A stretch of 34,425 nt of DNA, from contig CP070993.1 of the NCBI GenBank assembly GCA_017134395.1, positions 153,231 through 187,655 on the forward strand. Direction: 5' to 3'. The position numbers and the translations under genes were made by a program. The DNA comes from Candidatus Kaiserbacteria bacterium (GTDB taxonomy: Bacteria > Patescibacteriota > Minisyncoccia > Phycocordibacterales > UBA2100). Shown here in pieces: positions 5,378 through 31,549 of this stretch. The notes beneath the pieces were generated by a model. That model had not been told where the DNA came from. It did no database searches and was given only the letters and a program-made list of their open reading frames with translations. Positions within the stretch are counted from its first letter, which is position 1, and each line of letters starts with the position of its first letter.

Positions 5378-7243
5378 ATGGAAGTGGGACCGTGGAAATC
5401 AGAGTCAGTCGAAAGCCCAGAACTTTTTCGTGGAACACTTGGATTTGACTTCGTGTTTACACGCGAAGATGGAAAGCTGAAGTGTTATTGTATCGAATTC
5501 AATGGGAGCAATAGTGGAGTACAAGGAGTGCGGCGGCTGCCTGCAGATGCTCTCGATGCAACACACAAAATTTTGGCATCAGTACGAAGCTCAGCAAGTG
5601 AAAAAACGCGAGAAGCAGTACGAAAGTACAACGATTTCATTAGAAGAAATCCGGACCAGTCTTTTTCAGTGGTGGTAGCAGGCCATCTTCGTGCACAGCT
5701 CGATGATGCACCATTGCATACGCATGAATATTCAAATCCGGAATTTATCCAAGATATAACACTGAATAAACGGCGCCAGGAAGAATATATACCACGCGCT
5801 AACCGACCAAACTCGTGGAAACCGGGCGATTCCACGAAATCTAAGAGCGGGTTTTGGATCTATAAAGAGGGTGGTTCGTCGCGTGGACAGGGTATCTACA
5901 TTCTTTCCGATACTGAACTAGCAGATATGCTTAAAGAGGCACCGAAGATAGACGAATCGACTCTTGGTAATGATGTTATACAAGAATTGTTGCCGGTCAC
6001 CGGTGCAGAAAATGCAACAGAGGCACACAAAAATCGTGCAGCTTCCATGCGCCTACTAATGGACTTCCGCTATTTAGAAGGCGGGACGATACAGTCGGAC
6101 TTTTCGACCAGCTATCAGCGAATTGCACCTCATGACAAAAATAGTACACAGACACCCGGTGGTGAGGATTTTCAAAAAGAGGATACTTTGGTGGTTAATT
6201 ATTCAACAGGTGCGCTTTCGGCTGCGGCTTCGCCAATGGAAATAAAGCTCGCAAAAGAAGTCGCAGAAAAAGTTATTCACAATCTAGCTAACACGTACAT
6301 AAAGAAGATGATTAATGAAGAGAAAGTACATCGACTTATGTTGGAAGTACCAACGGGCCGCTCACGCGAAGTAAGTGCAGTCAATAAGGAAGTGAATGAT
6401 GCACTTATTACATTGTACACGCGCTTTGAGGATACGTATGGTAGAGATTATCTACCATTTCATAATAGCTACCACACTGCGCGTGTTATTGCACGAGTCG
6501 ATAAGATATGGCGCAGTATTGACGAAGGTGAGCACGATTTAAAAGAGTACCTTCTTCTACGGCTATGTGCAGCATTTCATGACAGTGTTCAAAAATGGAA
6601 GTCATTCGAGATTGAAGAAGACTTCAATGGGCAGAAGTTTACGAAAATCGTTAGGAAACGTTTTACCGGACAAAATGAGAAAGAGAGTGCAGGTGAGCTT
6701 GTCGCATGTATGCGCCAGATTAATCAAGAAGTTAACTACGATTTTTTCTCTCGCGAAGATGAGCGTGTTGCACAGGAGGCCATTCAGGCAACGATACCTG
6801 CATTTGATATTGCACGTGGTACCGTGGGACAACCCAAACTTGAAAAACACTCATCGCGTGTTACACGACTTCTAGCACTTGCCGATCTCGGAGCTGCGGG
6901 ACTGGAGTCGGAAAAATTTGTATATGAAGGCAATAGAATTTTCCAAGAAGAAAACATTGATATCTATGAAGCCTTGCAAAGCCCTGAAAAGATCGATGAT
7001 GCGCATAAAGAATATTTTAGACATAGAATGTTCGAGTGGTCGAAGTCACAACCAAGATTCGCCAAAGGGCGACAACGACTCTTAGAGAAGGAGTTGGTTA
7101 GACTGCCACAGCGCGAAAAGAAGGAAATTAGATATCTGTTTTGCGGTTTTGAAGAAAGTATTGCATATGCAAAAGAGGCAGTTGAGAGACGACGTACTAT
7201 GAGTTTCGAGGAGCTTGCAAAAGATATGGGGTACGAGTTCTAG
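5378..7243 (+). CDS. ATP-grasp (tubulin-tyrosine-ligase-like) / HD-domain phosphohydrolase fusion protein
   Basis: 621 aa. ATP-grasp/TTL-type motifs FWIYKEGGSSRGQGIYIL, VIQELLP, MDFRYL and LVVNYSTGA, plus GFDFVF...YCIEFNGSNSG at the N-terminus. The C-terminal half has the H...HD pattern (FHNSYHTARVIA ... LCAAFHDSVQ). Confidence 0.6.
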   Translation: MEVGPWKSESVESPELFRGTLGFDFVFTREDGKLKCYCIEFNGSNSGVQGVRRLPADALDATHKILASVRSSASEKTREAVRKYNDFIRRNPDQSFSVVVAGHLRAQLDDAPLHTHEYSNPEFIQDITLNKRRQEEYIPRANRPNSWKPGDSTKSKSGFWIYKEGGSSRGQGIYILSDTELADMLKEAPKIDESTLGNDVIQELLPVTGAENATEAHKNRAASMRLLMDFRYLEGGTIQSDFSTSYQRIAPHDKNSTQTPGGEDFQKEDTLVVNYSTGALSAAASPMEIKLAKEVAEKVIHNLANTYIKKMINEEKVHRLMLEVPTGRSREVSAVNKEVNDALITLYTRFEDTYGRDYLPFHNSYHTARVIARVDKIWRSIDEGEHDLKEYLLLRLCAAFHDSVQKWKSFEIEEDFNGQKFTKIVRKRFTGQNEKESAGELVACMRQINQEVNYDFFSREDERVAQEAIQATIPAFDIARGTVGQPKLEKHSSRVTRLLALADLGAAGLESEKFVYEGNRIFQEENIDIYEALQSPEKIDDAHKEYFRHRMFEWSKSQPRFAKGRQRLLEKELVRLPQREKKEIRYLFCGFEESIAYAKEAVERRRTMSFEELAKDMGYEF

Positions 7244-8747: not shown

Positions 8748-9425
8748 ATGAATAATCAAAAAGGAATGACTACCACAGTAGTCGCAAGTATAGTAGTACT
8801 CTTATTACTTTTAGGAGGTGGTTGGTACGCATTTTCACAGGATGAAGAACCTGTAAAAACTGGTGACGCCATGATGGAGAGCGAAAGTGATGAATCTATG
8901 ACTAGTCACGAGAGTGACACAACAATGGAGGGTGAAGGAGGAGACACCATGATGAAGGAAGATGGTGACACTATGATGGAAAGTGAGCATAGCGAAGATG
9001 CTATGATGGAAGAAGGAAACACAGACGCAGCAATGAAAGACGAAGCGTCTTTTAAGGGCGCGGTTATTGCCGGCTCAAGCTCACCACTGCTTGAGTATAA
9101 CCAGCGCGACTATAACACGGCAATTGCAAGTGATCGCGTAGTTGTTTTGTACTTCTATGCAAATTGGTGTCCATTGTGTAAAGCAGAATTTGTAGACACA
9201 AAAGCTGCATTTGATGCACTGACCGAAGAAGATGTTGTAGGTTTCCGAGTGCATTTCAACGATGGGGACTTAACTCCAGAAATGGAAGAGCTGGCACGTG
9301 AATTTGGCGTTGCCTATCAACACACAAAGGTATTTATTAAAAACGGTGAACGCGTACTTAAGTCACCAGAAACCTGGAGTAAAGACAGGTATCTGACTGA
9401 GTTTGCGAAACACATAAACAAATAA
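8748..9425 (+). CDS. Membrane-anchored thioredoxin-fold protein with an acidic Met-rich linker
   Basis: N-terminal TM helix, then a D(T/A)MM(E/K)E-type repeat region (nt 8862-9044). The C-terminal thioredoxin fold has active site WCPLC. Confidence 0.8.
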   Translation: MNNQKGMTTTVVASIVVLLLLLGGGWYAFSQDEEPVKTGDAMMESESDESMTSHESDTTMEGEGGDTMMKEDGDTMMESEHSEDAMMEEGNTDAAMKDEASFKGAVIAGSSSPLLEYNQRDYNTAIASDRVVVLYFYANWCPLCKAEFVDTKAAFDALTEEDVVGFRVHFNDGDLTPEMEELAREFGVAYQHTKVFIKNGERVLKSPETWSKDRYLTEFAKHINK

Positions 9426-9429
9426 CAGT

Positions 9430-10140
9430 ATGTTTGGTTCTGAAGTTACCCTCGTAGTCGCATTTATCGCAGGAATAGTGTCTTTTCTATCTCCGTGCGT
9501 CTTGCCCATTATTCCAGGCTTTTTAGCGTATCTTACTGGTACTTCAGCCCAAGAAAAGCCAAAACGAAGCCGAGTCGTCTTACACAGCGCACTGTTTGTA
9601 TTGGGGTTCTCGCTCGTTTTTGCTCTTCTCGGAGTCTTACTAAACACTGTACTTGAACGCTCTGCATACGATACTCAAATTTGGCTGTCGCGTATTGGTG
9701 GAGTCATTATAATCTTCTTCGGACTCTTCTTGATGAAGCTCATACGTCTCCCATTTCTCGAGAGAGCTCACACAATTAATGTTGTCGGTAAATTTAAATC
9801 GAAGTATCTTACCTCAATGTTATTTGGTGCAGCGTTTGCTGCCGGATGGACGCCTTGTGTAAGTGCTGCATTAGGTGCGATTCTTGGACTTGCAGCAAGT
9901 AACCCTGGTGTAGCGTTTTGGCTTCTTATGTCTTACTCATTTGGTTTGGGAGTTCCGTTTCTTGTTATTGGGTTCTTTGCAGCGGATGCCGGAAGAGTTA
10001 TACAACGTTACGCCAGCTCACTTACGTATGTAAACATGGTGTTTGGTGCACTGCTTATCGTTTTGGGAGTTCTTATATTCACGCAAGATTTGGTTCTCTT
10101 ATCTAACTTTGAACTTCTTAATAAAATCCTCTTGAAATAA
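9430..10140 (+). CDS. ccdA: CcdA/DsbD-family thiol:disulfide electron transporter
   Basis: 236 aa, polytopic. Conserved LSPCVLPIIPGFLAYL and a second Cys motif AGWTPCV. Confidence 0.85.
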   Translation: MFGSEVTLVVAFIAGIVSFLSPCVLPIIPGFLAYLTGTSAQEKPKRSRVVLHSALFVLGFSLVFALLGVLLNTVLERSAYDTQIWLSRIGGVIIIFFGLFLMKLIRLPFLERAHTINVVGKFKSKYLTSMLFGAAFAAGWTPCVSAALGAILGLAASNPGVAFWLLMSYSFGLGVPFLVIGFFAADAGRVIQRYASSLTYVNMVFGALLIVLGVLIFTQDLVLLSNFELLNKILLK

Positions 10141-11895: not shown

Positions 11896-12351
11896 ATGAA
11901 TTCAAATACTAAAGACCAAGCCGTGTGGAATGCTTTATTCTCACTTTTATTCCTGTTGTTACTCATTAGTGCATTTTGGGGGCTTACCAATGGACTTGAT
12001 AGCTTCAAGTGGCTCTATGTCCTCGATAGTATGGATATCGCGATACTTGCTCTGGCAACGTTTAGAATAGTGCGCCTTGTGACATTCGACAAAATATTTA
12101 CCTTCGTTCGCAATATTTTTATGGATTTACAAGAAGATGGCAGCTATGAAAAGCCTGAAAGAGGTATCCGTCGAACTGTTGCAGAGCTTATTGAATGTAT
12201 ATGGTGTACTGGTCTTTGGGCAGCGCTACCAATAGTGACACTCTATTTCATAGCAGATATAGGACGTTTCTTTGTACTTGTGCTCGCCGTGGCAGCTCTC
12301 GGAAGTTTCTTGCAGCTCTTTTCTCAAATGGTTGGAAGAATAGGGAAGTAG
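11896..12351 (+). CDS. DUF1360-family membrane protein
   Basis: LATFRIVRLVTFDKIF ... ELIECIWCTGLWAA matches the DUF1360 pattern as I recall it. Confidence 0.65.
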   Translation: MNSNTKDQAVWNALFSLLFLLLLISAFWGLTNGLDSFKWLYVLDSMDIAILALATFRIVRLVTFDKIFTFVRNIFMDLQEDGSYEKPERGIRRTVAELIECIWCTGLWAALPIVTLYFIADIGRFFVLVLAVAALGSFLQLFSQMVGRIGK

Positions 12352-18972: not shown

Positions 18973-20764
<1,792 letters not shown>

Positions 20765-22146: not shown

Positions 22147-22176
22147 AAAAATATGGACATCCGATGTCCATATTTT
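22147..22176 (+). terminator. Intrinsic terminator after truB, core GGACATCCGATGTCC
   Basis: AAAATATGGACATC c GATGTCCATATTTT. Confidence 0.75.
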
Positions 22177-22223
22177 AATATAAGAGCTTCACTACAGAGT
22201 TTAAAAGTACACAAGAGATTACC

Positions 22224-22248
22224 TTGACCAAGGTTCGACCTTGGTCAA
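22224..22248. repeat. Hairpin or palindrome in the convergent intergenic zone
   Basis: TTGACCAAGGT tcg ACCTTGGTCAA (11-bp stem). Confidence 0.7.
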
Positions 22249-22272
22249 AATATACGCATGCCAGTAGGTTAT

Positions 22273-22294
22273 ATATATCAGTTAACTGATATAT
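22273..22294. repeat. 22-nt perfect palindrome with core CAGTTAACTG
   Basis: ATATATCAGTTAACTGATATAT. Confidence 0.85.
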
Positions 22295-22367
22295 TTCTTC
22301 ATCTATGAGGGCGAGAAGAAAACTGTATTGAATTGTGTTTAAGAAGACGTTTAAAAATAGTTTCTTG

Positions 22368-22391
22368 AATACTCCAGTTAACTGGAGTATT
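22368..22391. repeat. 24-nt perfect palindrome with the same core CAGTTAACTG
   Basis: AATACTCCAGTTAACTGGAGTATT, centred 96 bp from the previous palindrome. Confidence 0.85.
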
Positions 22392-22415
22392 TGATGTATG
22401 ATTGAAATTTTAACG

Positions 22416-27641: not shown

Positions 27642-27863
27642 ATGTTTAAAAATTTTCTCGTAAAAAAGTTGATGAAATCACAACTTAAAAATATGCCTAA
27701 GGATCAGGCTGACATGATTGGTGCAATGATTGAAAAAAATCCAGAGCTCTTTATGAAAATTGCAAAAGAAGCACAACAACTTGTAAAAGGTGGGAAGGAT
27801 CAGATGGCAGCTATGATGGAGGTCAGTAAAAAGTACCAAAAGGAGCTCCAGCAGTTGATGTAA
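27642..27863 (+). CDS. Hypothetical small helical Lys/Met-rich protein
   Basis: 73-aa ORF with AT-rich, neighbour-like codon usage. No recognisable family. Confidence 0.45.
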   Translation: MFKNFLVKKLMKSQLKNMPKDQADMIGAMIEKNPELFMKIAKEAQQLVKGGKDQMAAMMEVSKKYQKELQQLM

Positions 27864-27907
27864 TTATTTGACAGATACCCGCAAATGTCCTTTGTTGGAA
27901 AACTGTG

Positions 27908-27935
27908 TTGACAATTTTTTCCCATTTGATATCTT
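27908..27935 (+). promoter_or_regulatory. Near-consensus promoter driving the candidate sRNA
   Basis: TTGACA (27908-27913), 16-nt spacer, TGaTATCTT (TG 27927-27928, TATCTT 27930-27935). Confidence 0.6.
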
Positions 27936-27941
27936 ATCGGA

Positions 27942-28124
27942 ACGGTAGTCAGCTTGCTGATTGCCGTACTGGTGACTACTTCAAGTCTTCGGACTCGAAA
28001 TGGCCACCATGTAGGTCGACTCTTCGGAGTTGATCTACATGGTGTCCGTTTCAATCTTTTGACCTTCGGGGATAGGGAAAGAAATGAACACCAATGAAAA
28101 ATGTCTACTTCGGTAGGCGTTTTT
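27942..28124 (+). ncRNA. Candidate novel structured sRNA (~185 nt), class unknown
   Basis: No ORF. Five consecutive hairpins: 27942-27967 (CUUG loop), 27980-27999, 28002-28047 (about 20 bp), 28055-28082 and 28103-28118. The last four close on UUCG loops and the final one is followed by GTTTTT. Several G-U pairs work only on the + strand. Confidence 0.55.
28097..28124 (+). terminator. Intrinsic terminator ending the candidate sRNA
   Basis: GTCTAC ttcg GTAGGC followed by GTTTTT, with an A-run upstream. Confidence 0.7.
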
Positions 28125-28145
28125 CATATCTGAGTAAATAATTAC

Positions 28146-28171
28146 AAAAAGCCGCATATATGCGGCTTTTT
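28146..28171. terminator. 26-nt perfect palindromic bidirectional terminator
   Basis: AAAAAGCCGCATATATGCGGCTTTTT. Confidence 0.75.
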
Positions 28172-28258
28172 CTATTGCAACATAGGTATATTTATGCAAC
28201 TATCAAGCAAGTTTGTACTTTTTGTTCAACTAGTCTAGTCATGAAAGGGAGACTAATA

Positions 28259-29191
28259 ATGGCTACGGTTGCAAAACTTGAATCGACTGAAGAAGACTTC
28301 AGTCCAAATACTATTTACCCTGTGACGCTGAACCAAATTCTTCCATTTCCGGACCAGCCTCGGCAACATTTTGACGAACAAGGCATCAAGGATTTGGCAG
28401 AAAGTATTCAGGAAAAAGGCCAGCAAACGCCCGTCGTTCTCTGCAAGAACCCCAGTTATCCTGAACATTTTATGCTCGTCGGGGGTGAAAGACGCTTTCG
28501 GGCGTTCACTCTCATAAGTCAGCTTACTGGGAAAAATCCTGAAGTCCTTGCGGTGTTTAAGCCGTTCGAAAATGGGGAAAATCATTTCCGGATTGCGTTG
28601 CTTGATAATCACCACAGAAAAGGTCTTTGCGAACTTGATGAAGCACATGCATTCGCGAAACTTCATCATAAATTTGGCGACACAATTGCACGTATCGCCA
28701 AAGACATGGGAAAGTCAGTTTCCCATGTTAACCAATACATTCTGGTTGCCGGCCTCCCTGAGGAGGTAAAGGAACTGATGAATCCAAATCTTCCCAGAAT
28801 CGAAAGGCTCAACATAAGTGCGGCAATAAAGATTGCACAAGGGGTTCCTAAGAGCAATCCCGATCTGCGTATTGAACTTGCCAGGGAATCTGTGGAAAGA
28901 AGTCTGCCGGTAGTTGAGGTTAGTGCATTCGTCGAAAGGAGAACTGAGCAAGCCGGATACCGCATTGGTGGAAGCAGAAGAAAACCTTCTGATGATTATA
29001 AGGCGCTTCTGGGGTTTTTCGGGAGAACAAAAACCCAGCTTAAGCGTCACTGTGCGCATCCAAATATCGAAGCGCTATTCCTAAAACGAGACGATCCTGC
29101 AGCTGATAAAAAAGCAGCTCTGGAGAGTATCGATTCCGTTGTGCGACAACTGGAATCACTTCGTCGCAAAATTGCAGGCGATGAAACGTAG
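28259..29191 (+). CDS. ParB/Srx-family protein (ParB N-terminal domain plus HTH), orphan
   Basis: ParB box motifs LPFPDQPRQHFDEQGIKDLAESIQEKGQQTPVV and VGGERRFRAF, then HTH DTIARIAKDMGKSVSHVNQYILVAGLPEEVKELM. The ATG at 28259 has GGGAG 7 nt upstream. The track start at 28160 lies inside the terminator palindrome. Confidence 0.8.
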   Translation: MATVAKLESTEEDFSPNTIYPVTLNQILPFPDQPRQHFDEQGIKDLAESIQEKGQQTPVVLCKNPSYPEHFMLVGGERRFRAFTLISQLTGKNPEVLAVFKPFENGENHFRIALLDNHHRKGLCELDEAHAFAKLHHKFGDTIARIAKDMGKSVSHVNQYILVAGLPEEVKELMNPNLPRIERLNISAAIKIAQGVPKSNPDLRIELARESVERSLPVVEVSAFVERRTEQAGYRIGGSRRKPSDDYKALLGFFGRTKTQLKRHCAHPNIEALFLKRDDPAADKKAALESIDSVVRQLESLRRKIAGDET

Positions 29192-29211
29192 ACAACCAAT
29201 GAGACAACAAA

Positions 29212-29249
29212 ACTGGGCAAGACGTTACGACGTCTTGCCCAGTCTTTTT
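29212..29249 (+). terminator. Strong intrinsic terminator after the ParB-like gene
   Basis: ACTGGGCAAGACGT tacg ACGTCTTGCCCAGT (14-bp stem) followed by CTTTTT. Confidence 0.85.
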
Positions 29250-29250
29250 A

Positions 29251-29279
29251 TTGACAATAAACGAAACCTGCGGTTAACT
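29251..29279 (+). promoter_or_regulatory. Promoter of the CtrA-like gene
   Basis: TTGACA (29251-29256), 17-nt spacer, TTAACT (29274-29279). Confidence 0.5.
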
Positions 29280-29323
29280 CACGTATAGTATTGTTCCTAA
29301 CCAACCAACAAAGGAGAGGTTCT

Positions 29324-30070
29324 ATGAAAATTCTCTGTGTAGGTGTTGATGAGACTACGCTAGAATTCTTGAGAGCACATGGATTCGCGATCGAGGAGGG
29401 ATCGGACATTGAAACTGCTGAAGATCTCGATCCTTACTTGCTGGGTCTTGAATCTGCTGCTGGCCTTGTAGACGTTGAGGCAAGTGGTCTTGGAATTTTC
29501 TTTCCACGATCAGTTCGCAATGCAAGAAACACCACGCCACTTGTCGGAATCGCATCGGTCAACAAAGACGAAGCATGGTCAGAAACATGTGCCGAATTTT
29601 TGGAAATCGGGGGAGACTATTTGGTCAAACGGCCGGTAAGTCCGCGAGAAGTAATTGCTGCCCTAAGTTCGAGCATACGCCGATCAAACAACGGCTTGCA
29701 TGACATCGTCTTCTGCGAACTGCAGGATCCTAAATTGGGAGATCTTACTCTCAAGATCAATACAACGACGAGCAGAGTGTATGTCGATGATAAAGAGATC
29801 CTTCTTACTGGCAAAGAAAGAAGCTGTATTCGTACGCTTGCTTTGGCCGTAGACAGAGTGCTTTCAAAAGAGCAGATTCTCAACAGCATGTACGCCCTCG
29901 AAATTGATGAGCCGGAATTAAAAATTATCGACGTCTTCATGTGCAAGATTCGTAAAAAACTGGCAGAAGTCGATCCACGTGCCAGCATTTTTATTCAGAC
30001 AATTTGGGGTCGAGGCTACTCTTTGGTAAGCCTGCTTGCCCTAAACAACTCTGAACAAAAGGCTGTGTGA
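29324..30070 (+). CDS. OmpR-family response regulator with a CtrA-type DNA-binding domain
   Basis: The ATG at 29324 is preceded by AAAGGAGAGG. The receiver has D9/E10, D50 and K102 at the expected spacing. The output domain reads LLTGKE...DEPELKIIDVFMCKIRKKL...QTIWGRGYSL, closely matching the CtrA recognition-helix region as I recall it. Confidence 0.8.
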   Translation: MKILCVGVDETTLEFLRAHGFAIEEGSDIETAEDLDPYLLGLESAAGLVDVEASGLGIFFPRSVRNARNTTPLVGIASVNKDEAWSETCAEFLEIGGDYLVKRPVSPREVIAALSSSIRRSNNGLHDIVFCELQDPKLGDLTLKINTTTSRVYVDDKEILLTGKERSCIRTLALAVDRVLSKEQILNSMYALEIDEPELKIIDVFMCKIRKKLAEVDPRASIFIQTIWGRGYSLVSLLALNNSEQKAV

Positions 30071-30071
30071 C

Positions 30072-30112
30072 AAAATGGACCCGGAGCATCGAAATGCACC
30101 GGGTCCTTTTTT
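30072..30112. terminator. Bidirectional terminator shared by the convergent CtrA-like and SciP-like genes
   Basis: GGACCCGG ... CCGGGTCC with inner GCAT/ATGC pairing. TTTTTT lies downstream and an A-run upstream. Confidence 0.8.
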
Positions 30113-30353
30113 AATGACGACGCGTCACGCGAAGCCCTTTCACACCGTCTTTTTGTAAGGTAGTTCGCCACTCGATAAGCGTGTTCGCGTCGACATCGTA
30201 CTTTTTTTCTAGTCTCTCAAAAGAAAGGATGCCTAGATCGACAGCTCTCACAATCATCGCCTTACGTCCAGGTGTCCAGCGAGTTATGGTCGGAGGAAGA
30301 TCTTCTTCCCTCAAAATGGAATTGCCCTCAGCATCATACAGAGTTCCACTCAC
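30111..30353 (-). CDS. SciP/DUF1153-like small HTH protein
   Basis: 80 aa. GTG start preceded by AAAGGAG. The pattern DLPPTITRWTPGRKAMIVRAVDLGILSFERLEKKY...IEW....QKDGVKGLRVTRR matches the DUF1153/SciP consensus from memory. Confidence 0.7.
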   Translation of the reverse strand: MSGTLYDAEGNSILREEDLPPTITRWTPGRKAMIVRAVDLGILSFERLEKKYDVDANTLIEWRTTLQKDGVKGLRVTRRH

Positions 30354-30448
30354 AGTTATCTCCTTTACCTGTTCAAGTGCCTAATTTGAGTATATGATAG
30401 GCCATATATTTTGTCCATATTACCCATTGCTCAAAATAGAAATAATAT

Positions 30449-31549
30449 ATGTCACTTTCCATAGGTATCGTAGGACTTCCAAACGTCGGTAAATCGACGC
30501 TTTTTAATGCACTCACGAAGAAGTCAGTTACCGCAGCAAACTTTCCTTTTTGTACTATCGATCCCTCAGTTGGTGTAGTTGCAGTACCAGACGCACGTCT
30601 CAATCAACTTGCAGAAATGTCGAAATCAGAAAAAACTCTACCCGCCATCGTTGAGTTTGTTGATATAGCGGGACTCGTCAAAGGAGCATCTGAAGGTGAG
30701 GGGCTTGGAAACCAATTCCTCGCTAACATCCGTGAGGTAGATGCAATTGCGCAAGTTGTACGTGTTTTTGATGATGAGGATATTACGCATGTACACGGAG
30801 CAGTGGATCCTATACATGATATAGATATTATAAATCTTGAGCTTGTTCTTGCAGATACCCAAACTGTGGCAAAACGTCTAGGCACTATTGAGAAAGATGT
30901 TAAAGCTGGGAACAAAGAAGCTGCAATTCTAAAAAGTGCATTAGAGAAATTGCTCGTAACTCTTGAGTCAGGAAAACTTGCGAGTGTCACTCGACTGGAT
31001 GAGAAAGAACTTGTACAGGTAAAAGGCTTGCAACTGCTGACAATGAAGCCCTTTATGTATATCTTAAACAAAAAAAGCTCCGGATTTAATGTCCATGAAC
31101 AACCAGATGAACGTGGTGTTCAGCTAAAAAGTTTCCTTGAAGACGCAGGGGTATACTGGGTAGAAGTCGATGCAAGCGTTGAAGACGAACTAAAAGATGT
31201 GCACGGGGATGACGCACAAGAATTTAGACGTGAGTTTGGAATTCTACAAAGTGGAGTAGATGAGCTTATAAAAACTGGGTATTCGCTCTTAAACTTAATT
31301 TCATTCTTCACCACAGGCGAAAAAGAAACACGTGCATGGACAATTAAGAAGGGGAGTACAGCACCAACTGCTGCTGGAGTTATTCACACTGATTTTGAAA
31401 CAAAATTTATTCGTGCAGAAACTATTTCGTGGGAAGAACTTCTTAACGCTGGTTCGTGGAGTGCAGCAAAAGGAAACGGGAAAGTGCGTACAGAAGGTAA
31501 AGAATATATCGTACAAGATGGTGACGTGATGGAGTTTTTGCATAGTTAA
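30449..31549 (+). CDS. ychF: Ribosome-binding ATPase YchF
   Basis: GIVGLPNVGKSTLFNALT, DIAGLVKGASEGEGLGNQFL and the C-terminal TGS-like motif RAWTIKKGSTAPTAAGVIHTDFE. Confidence 0.95.
   Translation: MSLSIGIVGLPNVGKSTLFNALTKKSVTAANFPFCTIDPSVGVVAVPDARLNQLAEMSKSEKTLPAIVEFVDIAGLVKGASEGEGLGNQFLANIREVDAIAQVVRVFDDEDITHVHGAVDPIHDIDIINLELVLADTQTVAKRLGTIEKDVKAGNKEAAILKSALEKLLVTLESGKLASVTRLDEKELVQVKGLQLLTMKPFMYILNKKSSGFNVHEQPDERGVQLKSFLEDAGVYWVEVDASVEDELKDVHGDDAQEFRREFGILQSGVDELIKTGYSLLNLISFFTTGEKETRAWTIKKGSTAPTAAGVIHTDFETKFIRAETISWEELLNAGSWSAAKGNGKVRTEGKEYIVQDGDVMEFLHS

Follow-up and report, generated by a model that had tools for sequence, protein, structure and literature searches.

Introduction

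CtrA is an essential OmpR-family response regulator of Alphaproteobacteria, and CtrA and SciP together are regarded as hallmarks of alphaproteobacterial cell-cycle and motility control. Bacteria of the candidate phyla radiation (CPR) have tiny genomes and very few regulators. In Caulobacter, SciP binds CtrA and impairs the recruitment of RNA polymerase (PMC4083442), and CtrA half-sites overlap the −10 region in promoters that are repressed (PMC6180460). KorB and BisD are examples of ParB-family clamps that cooperate with small transcription factors (PMC11790492, PMC13584720, PMC12409273). A survey of the ParB-CTPase fold (PMC12704722) makes no mention of response regulators, of CtrA or of such a pairing, and our literature search found no paper linking CtrA to CPR bacteria or Patescibacteria. 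Here we describe a cassette of three genes from a Candidatus Kaiserbacteria bacterium, lying within a stretch of 34,425 nucleotides (GenBank assembly GCA_017134395.1, contig CP070993.1, positions 153,231 to 187,655 of the forward strand) that we refer to as a whole as the window. The genes encode a ParB-like protein, a CtrA-like regulator with a degenerate (pseudo-)receiver, which we call pCtrA, and a small SciP-like helix-turn-helix (HTH) protein.

An initial annotation, made from the letters of the DNA alone, had described these three genes and an RNA candidate upstream of them as four separately punctuated units of one compact module that might be an insertion. All four units are present, as Pfam, NCBIfam and the promoter and terminator scans agree; promoter-like and terminator-like sites were found between them, and the protein names are correct as family resemblances. 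The initial annotation was also right that neither a ParA, nor a kinase, nor an integrase is encoded in the 34-kb window, in which we found no gene for a histidine phosphotransferase (Hpt) protein either. The four units lie between a small open reading frame (ORF) at 27642–27863 and ychF, which starts at 30449, and their coordinates are given in Table 1.

The cassette is conserved across CPR loci

We scanned GTDB, with one genome per species, using as query an alignment of the N-terminal (pseudo-receiver) half of pCtrA. This returned 14 loci, all of them in metagenome-assembled genomes (MAGs) of CPR bacteria, which carry the names Kaiserbacteria, Paceibacteria or Paceibacterota, Minisyncoccia, Parcubacteria and “uncultured Saccharibacteria”. 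A metagenome scan added 30 further pCtrA loci and an exact protein look-up another four, and these three groups form the locus set used below. The ParB-like gene stands directly upstream of pCtrA in every locus with enough flanking sequence except L015 and L047, that is, in about 29 of 31 informative loci. A SciP-like gene, as recognised by the family HMM, adjoins the cassette in 21 non-redundant loci, or about two thirds, mostly in convergent orientation downstream as in the window. The stop codon of the ParB-like gene overlaps the start of pCtrA by 4 nt in L020, L022 and L030, and a gap of 8–18 nt separates the two genes in L009, L017 and L036; the overlap or short gap in these six loci fits co-expression of partners. 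The compact module of the initial annotation stands for the three proteins, which appear to be functionally linked. At the exceptional locus L015, the place upstream of the CtrA-like gene (9126–9875) is taken by two small ORFs of 98 and 134 aa, which follow murF.

The flanks of the cassette differ in every locus, and clustering of all ORFs near the cassettes yielded no further recurrent family. Judged by housekeeping genes, the closest relative of our genome is L014 (AtpA 69%, AtpD 75% and YchF 73% identical), where the cassette is found upstream of the atp operon. From its conservation we read the cassette as old in the lineage, and from the differing flanks and the L014 site as moved by rearrangement over evolutionary time. 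The initial annotation had proposed that conservation of the module in syntenic position would mark it as ancestral. One half of this was found, in that the cassette is conserved across the lineage, and the other half was not, in that its position is not syntenic. We are confident that this regulatory unit is old and conserved in the lineage, and that it did not arrive by a recent insertion.

pCtrA joins a CtrA-type DNA-binding domain to a degenerate receiver

The best NCBIfam match of pCtrA is the CtrA equivalog NF045991, at 104.4 bits and without reaching the cut-off of 350; the OmpR model scores 64 bits. Its recognition helix (DEPELKIIDVFMCKIRKKL) is almost identical to that of the reference CtrA (DEPELKIIDVFVCKLRKKL), and the motifs LTGKE, DEPELKIIDVF.CK.RKKL and T.WGRGY are common to both proteins. 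An AlphaFold2 (AF2) model with a mean predicted local distance difference test (pLDDT) score of 84.9 shows a complete (beta-alpha)5 receiver fold followed by a winged helix, and in Foldseek this model matches full-length OmpR/PhoB regulators, phosphorylation-independent ones included. Close relatives are few, with ten recovered in a word-indexed search of 5.8 billion proteins and 27 at E <= 1e-30 in a HMMER pass over 1.84 billion representatives. Among the matches listed, the nearest relatives outside the pCtrA family are receiver-bearing regulators, and those named by source are CtrA proteins or come from alphaproteobacterial MAGs. Some members of the pCtrA family are themselves called “CtrA”, by automatic annotation (JGI) only.

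The chemistry of the receiver is altered in a consistent way. Of 35 family members, 34 have lost the invariant Lys, which is R in the window's protein. The first acidic position holds L or V in 33 members (V in the window's protein), with I and T in one member each. D persists at the second acidic position in 32 members and at the phospho-Asp position (D51 in CtrA) in 29, in both cases including the window's protein; the six members without the phospho-Asp have N, H, E or K there. The Ser/Thr position is kept as S or T in 28 of 35 and is A in the window's protein. The Pfam model Response_reg finds no receiver in the window's pCtrA nor in ten close relatives.

These positions bear on the alternative that pCtrA accepts phosphate as response regulators normally do, from a kinase or phosphorelay encoded elsewhere, and that the changes in its receiver are tolerated variation. 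The confidently predicted receiver fold speaks for it, as does the retention of the phospho-Asp, the second acidic residue and the Ser/Thr in most members. We nevertheless hold it to be unlikely, since the Lys is gone in all members except one, 34 of 35 carry a hydrophobic residue (L, V or I) at the first acidic position, the Asp itself is exchanged in six members, Response_reg is blind to the domain, and a kinase or Hpt gene is neither present in the window nor recurrent near the cassette.

Canonical CtrA in five loci, and the SciP-like protein

In five related loci (L009, L016, L024, L029 and L048) a second, canonical CtrA with an intact receiver adjoins the cassette (Table 1). The L024 copy shares 78% identity with a CtrA whose gene lies with fliI, fliJ and chpT, in a setting typical of Alphaproteobacteria. 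Neither a canonical ctrA nor a remnant of one was found in the window, the intergenic region included. A neighbour-joining tree recovers the pCtrA clade as monophyletic in 100 of 100 bootstraps. The same tree does not separate the canonical CtrA of CPR bacteria from alphaproteobacterial CtrA (15 of 100), and it does not show whether pCtrA descends from the former.

The SciP-like protein matches Pfam DUF1153 at 59.2 bits (E 4.5e-16), above the gathering score of 23.5. Its best NCBIfam match is the SciP equivalog, at 56.7 bits and below the cut-off of 100; relatives from CPR bacteria reach 80–83 bits. Relatives in the PDB are 2jrt and 2oa4, and a word-index search returned the query itself only. 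It is likely that ctrA and sciP were transferred between Alphaproteobacteria and CPR bacteria in the distant past.

Two cassette promoters are gene-specific and conserved

In most loci the spacer between the ParB-like and CtrA-like genes has the same layout as in the window, with a terminator hairpin followed by TTGACA, 17 nt and TT(T/A)ACT(C). The −10 element of this pCtrA promoter is non-canonical, lacking the usual A at −11 and containing an invariant C, and includes TTAAC, which resembles a CtrA half-site, at 29274–29278 in the window. The pattern T[TGA]GAC-N18-TT[TA]ACT[CGT] occurs 17 times in 434 kb of non-redundant locus sequence, each time directly upstream of a CtrA-like gene, at a shuffled expectation of 0.9. 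The promoter of the ParB-like gene is likewise conserved, as the pattern TTG[CT]-N15-17-[GA][TC]G.[CA]A.TAT occurs ten times in the same 434 kb, at a shuffled expectation of 2, and all ten are directly upstream of ParB-like genes. Since neutral DNA is randomised at about 40% protein identity, both promoters are evidently under selection and gene-specific. A sigma-54 reading of the ParB-like promoter was considered by eye and rejected, the spacing being off by one and the GG not conserved.

Downstream of this promoter, the 5′ leaders of many ParB-like genes (L007:8895-8915, L012:8915-8935, L013, L018, L020, L024 and others) carry a sequence close to TGATCTTCAA about 20–30 nt past the −10 element. 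This sequence, of which the leader in the window shows just a loose form (CAACTAGTCTAG), may serve as an operator or as an element of the leader.

A terminator hairpin is visible at the same place after the ParB-like gene in most related loci. Between the convergent CtrA-like and SciP-like genes, the hairpin at 30077–30106, together with the T-run after it, is probably a bidirectional terminator, as read from its sequence; our terminator scan missed it because the scan's loop limit was 8 nt.

The ParB-like protein is a putative ParB-family clamp that lacks ParB_C and a nearby ParA

The ParB-like protein scores 105 bits against TIGR00180 and consists of a ParB_N domain of the CTPase type, a ParB HTH and a helical C-terminus specific to its family. 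The CTP-binding motifs QPR, GERRFRA and N..R are kept in 29 of 29 family members, the window's included. Pfam gives no match to ParB_C, the C-terminal dimerisation domain, in this protein, and the C-terminus aligns only within its own family, where it bears the motif GY..GGR.RKPSDDYK. The AF2 model has a pLDDT of 83.3, with low confidence in the C-terminal helices, and its top Foldseek matches are Noc, ParB-CDP and KorB, with E 1e-12 to Noc and ParB. The N-terminal LG(R/K)GL peptide, which stimulates ParA, is missing from the window's protein, and in the four relatives closest to it only LG(K/R)P(L/M) is left. No ParA is encoded in the window, and clustering of neighbouring ORFs found none recurrent near the cassettes. 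In L001, a separate canonical ParB with a ParB_C domain is encoded besides the ParB-like protein.

It is conceivable that the genes simply adjoin each other and are not directly linked in function, with the ParB-like protein a chromosome organiser of the Noc or partition type and the CtrA-like and SciP-like proteins an unrelated transcription pair. The structural matches to Noc and chromosomal ParB would suit such an arrangement, as would the terminator and separate promoter between the ParB-like and CtrA-like genes in the window and the lack of any DNA motif common to the ParB-like and pCtrA promoters. We consider it improbable in view of the adjacency of the two genes in nearly all informative loci, kept although every flank differs, and of their overlap or translational coupling in several of them. 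The canonical ParB of L001, and the lack of an adjacent ParA, of ParB_C and of the LG(R/K)GL peptide in the window's protein, argue in the same direction.

The RNA candidate is a separate unit

Upstream of the ParB-like gene, a promoter, a run of stem-loops of about 240 nt and a terminator all fit inside 27864–28258. The minimum free energy of the RNA candidate is −109.6 kcal/mol (z = −11.2) on the plus strand and −83 kcal/mol on the minus strand, and both the G-U pairs and the folding asymmetry between strands favour the plus strand. Two adjacent hairpins, at 27981–27998 (TCAAGTCTTCGGACTCGA) and 28016–28033 (TCGACTCTTCGGAGTTGA), are 78% alike, which hints at a local duplication. Rfam gave no family at either gathering or permissive thresholds, the best match being AaHKsRNA41 at 30 bits against a gathering score of 97. 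No homolog of the region was found by blastn and nhmmer in 18 related loci, and the cassettes of the other loci have no counterpart of it upstream. In L014, the gap between the homolog of the small ORF and ychF is occupied by a protein gene and not by an RNA. An RNA-duplex test against five neighbouring 5′ untranslated regions (UTRs) gave no significant pairing (z 0.06 to 1.35). The RNA candidate, real as a sequence feature, is thus a separate, genome-specific unit, and its inclusion in the module by the initial annotation does not hold for the conserved cassette.

The hairpin run might instead have another role, as a transcription insulator or terminator stack, or it might belong functionally to the cassette and regulate its three mRNAs. 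Its 3′ end coincides exactly with the start of the ParB-like −35 element, and a Caulobacter small RNA, CcnA, is reported to modulate CtrA (bioRxiv 10.1101/756452). Both alternatives are doubtful, however, given the strong promoter and terminator that the candidate has of its own, a folding asymmetry that points to a plus-strand RNA, the lack of significant pairing to the 5′ UTRs of the cassette genes and the lack of a counterpart upstream of the other cassettes. We accordingly treat the cassette as the three protein genes and the RNA candidate as its neighbour.

Composition and mobility

The hand counts of G+C in single 60-nt lines from the initial annotation (29, 30, 31, 17 and 29 of 60) were exact, and the abundance of CTG, GCG and GGG codons that it had seen by eye in the ParB-like gene is borne out by counting (per 1000 codons, 25.7, 25.7 and 19.3 against 7.3, 14.9 and 10.4 in other genes). 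The G+C content at third codon positions (GC3) of the three cassette genes is 0.41–0.44 as compared to about 0.35 for most genes, and four other ORFs also have 0.41–0.43. By synonymous-codon likelihood relative to the rest of the window, the three genes rank 1, 3 and 6 of 34, towards the atypical end, and the genes at 9430–10140 and 11896–12351 and the resistance-nodulation-division (RND) pump are no less unusual in their codon choice. The windows of the module rank 3–9 of 128 by tetranucleotide distance, and the RND operon shows a stronger deviation. The composition signal is therefore as it was first described, suggestive and not decisive: the shift is small, and the mildly atypical values stay inside the range of the window's other genes.

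Searches for signs of mobility were negative. Direct repeats flanking the module do not go beyond chance matches and there is no integrase or transposase in the window, as far as repeats and integrase are concerned in keeping with the initial annotation. Relatives of the cassette proteins were not found in IMG/VR viral contigs, and PADLOC defence models gave no matches. Plasmids and phages, where the initial annotation had suggested looking for the same four-unit arrangement, hold no cassette relatives and gave only generic ParB matches at 26–33% identity. A recent horizontal insertion, by which the 2.5-kb block would have been newly acquired between the small ORF and ychF, is thus very improbable, for although the codon usage, the rankings and the arrangement in L014 (where about 0.6 kb and one other gene separate the small ORF from ychF downstream of it, and the cassette is found at another site) speak for it, the cassette and its promoters are kept across the lineage at about 40% protein identity, none of these mobility hallmarks is present, and the deviation of the RND pump and of other genes in the window is as great or greater.

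Other features of the window

The window has a G+C content of 43% and is ordinary chromosomal DNA, with genes for an ABC ATPase, uvrC, murB, ddl, tRNA-Ala, thioredoxin and DsbD proteins, the ATP synthase operon, truB, an RND pump with its HlyD adaptor, ychF and a DUF5671 protein. The small ORF at 27642–27863 encodes 73 aa rich in Lys, Met and Gln, has no family match and has a 46%-identical homolog in L014 (12039–12254), likewise near ychF; it is probably a real small protein unrelated to the cassette. Between atpG and atpD, an ORF of 122 aa (18973–19341; G+C 0.366, GC3 0.244) has no Pfam match, and because the atpG–atpD gap in L014 is 9 nt it looks like a lineage-specific insert in the ATP synthase operon. 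At 5378–7243 the window encodes a 621-aa protein without a Pfam match, which is large for an unannotated gene in so small a genome. The palindrome GACATCNGATGTC occurs twice, at 2715–2727 and 22156–22168, where 0.04 occurrences are expected, and both copies lie directly 3′ of stop codons, those of the uvrC-like gene and truB. The spacer between truB and the RND genes (22148–22400) contains four separate palindromes, one of them with GTTAAC inside.

Table 1. Positions of the cassette genes, the RNA candidate and their signals in the window, and of canonical CtrA genes adjoining the cassette in related loci.
Feature	Position	Strand	Description
Sigma-70-type promoter of RNA candidate	27908..27935	+	TTGACA, 16-nt spacer, TATCTT, TG upstream; promoter scan, 10/12 matches
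Structured small-RNA candidate	27936..28178	+	Five stem-loops (four with UUCG loops), then terminator hairpin
Terminator hairpin of RNA candidate and T-run	28146-28176 (hairpin 28146-28171)	+	Terminator scan
Conserved promoter of ParB-like gene	28175..28203	+	TTGCAA, then ATGCAACTAT as extended −10
ParB-like gene	28259..29191	+	310 aa; ParB_N (E 9.6e-13), HTH_ParB (E 1.6e-06)
Intrinsic terminator after ParB-like gene	29212..29253	+	14-bp stem and T-run; called at 29212-29243 by terminator scan
Conserved non-canonical promoter of pCtrA	29251..29280	+	TTGACA, N17, TTAACT(C)
CtrA-like regulator with degenerate (pseudo-)receiver (pCtrA)	29324..30070	+	248 aa; Trans_reg_C only (Pfam, E 3.4e-15)
Hairpin and T6 between convergent CtrA-like and SciP-like genes	30077..30112 (hairpin 30077-30106)	.	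GGACCCGG...CCGGGTCC; read from sequence
SciP-like small HTH protein	30111..30353	-	80 aa; DUF1153; GTG start, AAGGAG ribosome-binding site
Sigma-70-type promoter of SciP-like gene	30389..30417	-	TGGACA, 17 nt, TATACT; scan, 10/12 matches; divergent from ychF
Canonical CtrA	L009:8437-9123		238 bits on CtrA equivalog (cut-off 350)
Canonical CtrA	L016:10776-11435	-	291 bits (cut-off 350)
Canonical CtrA	L024:4142-4705	-	372 bits, passes cut-off 350
Canonical CtrA	L029:1112-1774	-	Intact receiver
Canonical CtrA	L048:611-1273	-	357 bits, passes cut-off 350

Discussion

On balance, we favour an account in which the locus is a long-resident chromosomal cassette of CPR bacteria of the Paceibacteria/Kaiserbacteria type, derived from the CtrA–SciP system known from Alphaproteobacteria and made up of a probably phosphorylation-independent CtrA paralog, a SciP-type modulator and a ParB-family clamp partner. 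Taken individually, the mechanistic steps of this account are less certain than the age and conservation of the unit. pCtrA would be a CtrA paralog that still binds CtrA-type DNA, because the recognition helix is retained, and it probably has no normal phosphorylation switch, because the invariant Lys and one metal-binding acidic residue are lost; its receiver may be a constitutive or partner-controlled domain, largely independent of phosphorylation. By analogy to SciP in Caulobacter, the SciP-like protein would bind the CtrA-type regulator and damp its activation. The ParB-like protein may be a CTP-binding DNA clamp without a ParA partner, which would act as a co-regulator of pCtrA, like KorB with KorA, and not as a partition protein. 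Within the −10 region of the promoter of pCtrA, the conserved TT(A/T)AC could be a site for autoregulation or for control by canonical CtrA.

Several observations count against this account. The retained phospho-Asp of the window's pCtrA and of most family members means that phosphorylation could still occur. About nine loci with enough flanking sequence have no adjacent SciP-like gene. Near the cassettes we found no site within two mismatches of canonical parS and no palindrome common across loci. In the −10 element of the pCtrA promoter TTTAC is found more often than TTAAC, so that it may be a mere peculiarity of the promoter, and the alignment that shows the element was partly anchored on the motif. 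Full CtrA boxes (TTAA-N7-TTAA) number 0 in the window, where 1.5 are expected, and neither they nor TTAACCAT are enriched in the 434 kb of loci. Finally, the codon-likelihood ranks place the three genes among the more atypical of the window.

Going further, we tentatively speculate that a DNA-loaded ParB-like clamp reports the state of the chromosome or its replication and controls pCtrA through the degenerate receiver, with a SciP-type brake, although we would give this extension little credence at present. If true, the ParB-like protein, pCtrA and the SciP-like protein would constitute a kinase-free minimal cell-cycle controller for ultra-small CPR bacteria and a new regulatory device. The occurrence on CPR contigs of canonical CtrA and SciP, and of pCtrA with a dedicated ParB-family protein, places a “cell-cycle regulator” kit in an unexpected phylum, and the cassette offers a testable entry point into the control of gene expression in these bacteria. 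The ParB-like protein is a further candidate for the small group of ParB-CTPase proteins acting jointly with transcription factors.

Among known systems, pCtrA compares most directly with CtrA of Caulobacter crescentus and other Alphaproteobacteria, with which it shares the two-domain fold of receiver and winged helix and the near-identical recognition helix. CtrA is its best-scoring curated family, yet the score falls far short of the equivalog cut-off. In contrast to CtrA, the receiver of pCtrA lacks the invariant Lys and one acidic residue, and its hosts are CPR bacteria; the CtrA phosphorelay genes CckA and ChpT were not seen near pCtrA, nor were full CtrA boxes. In its receiver, pCtrA resembles the atypical, phosphorylation-independent OmpR-family regulators HP1043, CosR, GlnR and RitR, which likewise combine a full receiver fold with degenerate phospho-chemistry and are found among its Foldseek matches (2hqr, 8uvk, 8hih, 5u8m). 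It differs from them in that there is no close sequence kinship and in that its DNA-binding domain is specifically CtrA-type.

The SciP-like protein resembles SciP, the small CtrA inhibitor, in its match to the DUF1153 family and in being encoded beside a CtrA-type gene; in L009, L016 and L048 the SciP-like gene and a canonical CtrA gene stand as an operon-like pair. Unlike SciP, it is shorter (80 aa) and scores below the equivalog cut-off, and its partner is apparently the pseudo-receiver CtrA paralog. Among ParB-family clamps such as KorB and BisD, the ParB-like protein is set apart by its chromosomal place in a CPR genome, by a CtrA-type regulator as its apparent partner and by its family-specific helical C-terminus, and no loading site was found near the cassettes. 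In common with KorB, which works with KorA or TrbA on plasmid RK2, BisD of ICEclc, Noc and chromosomal ParB, it has ParB_N and HTH_ParB domains and the motifs QPR, GERRxRA and N..R, and KorB, Noc and ParB-CDP are structural matches of its model. As in the linkage of korA and korB (PMC11790492, PMC13584720, PMC12409273), the ParB-like gene is tightly linked to the gene of a transcription factor.

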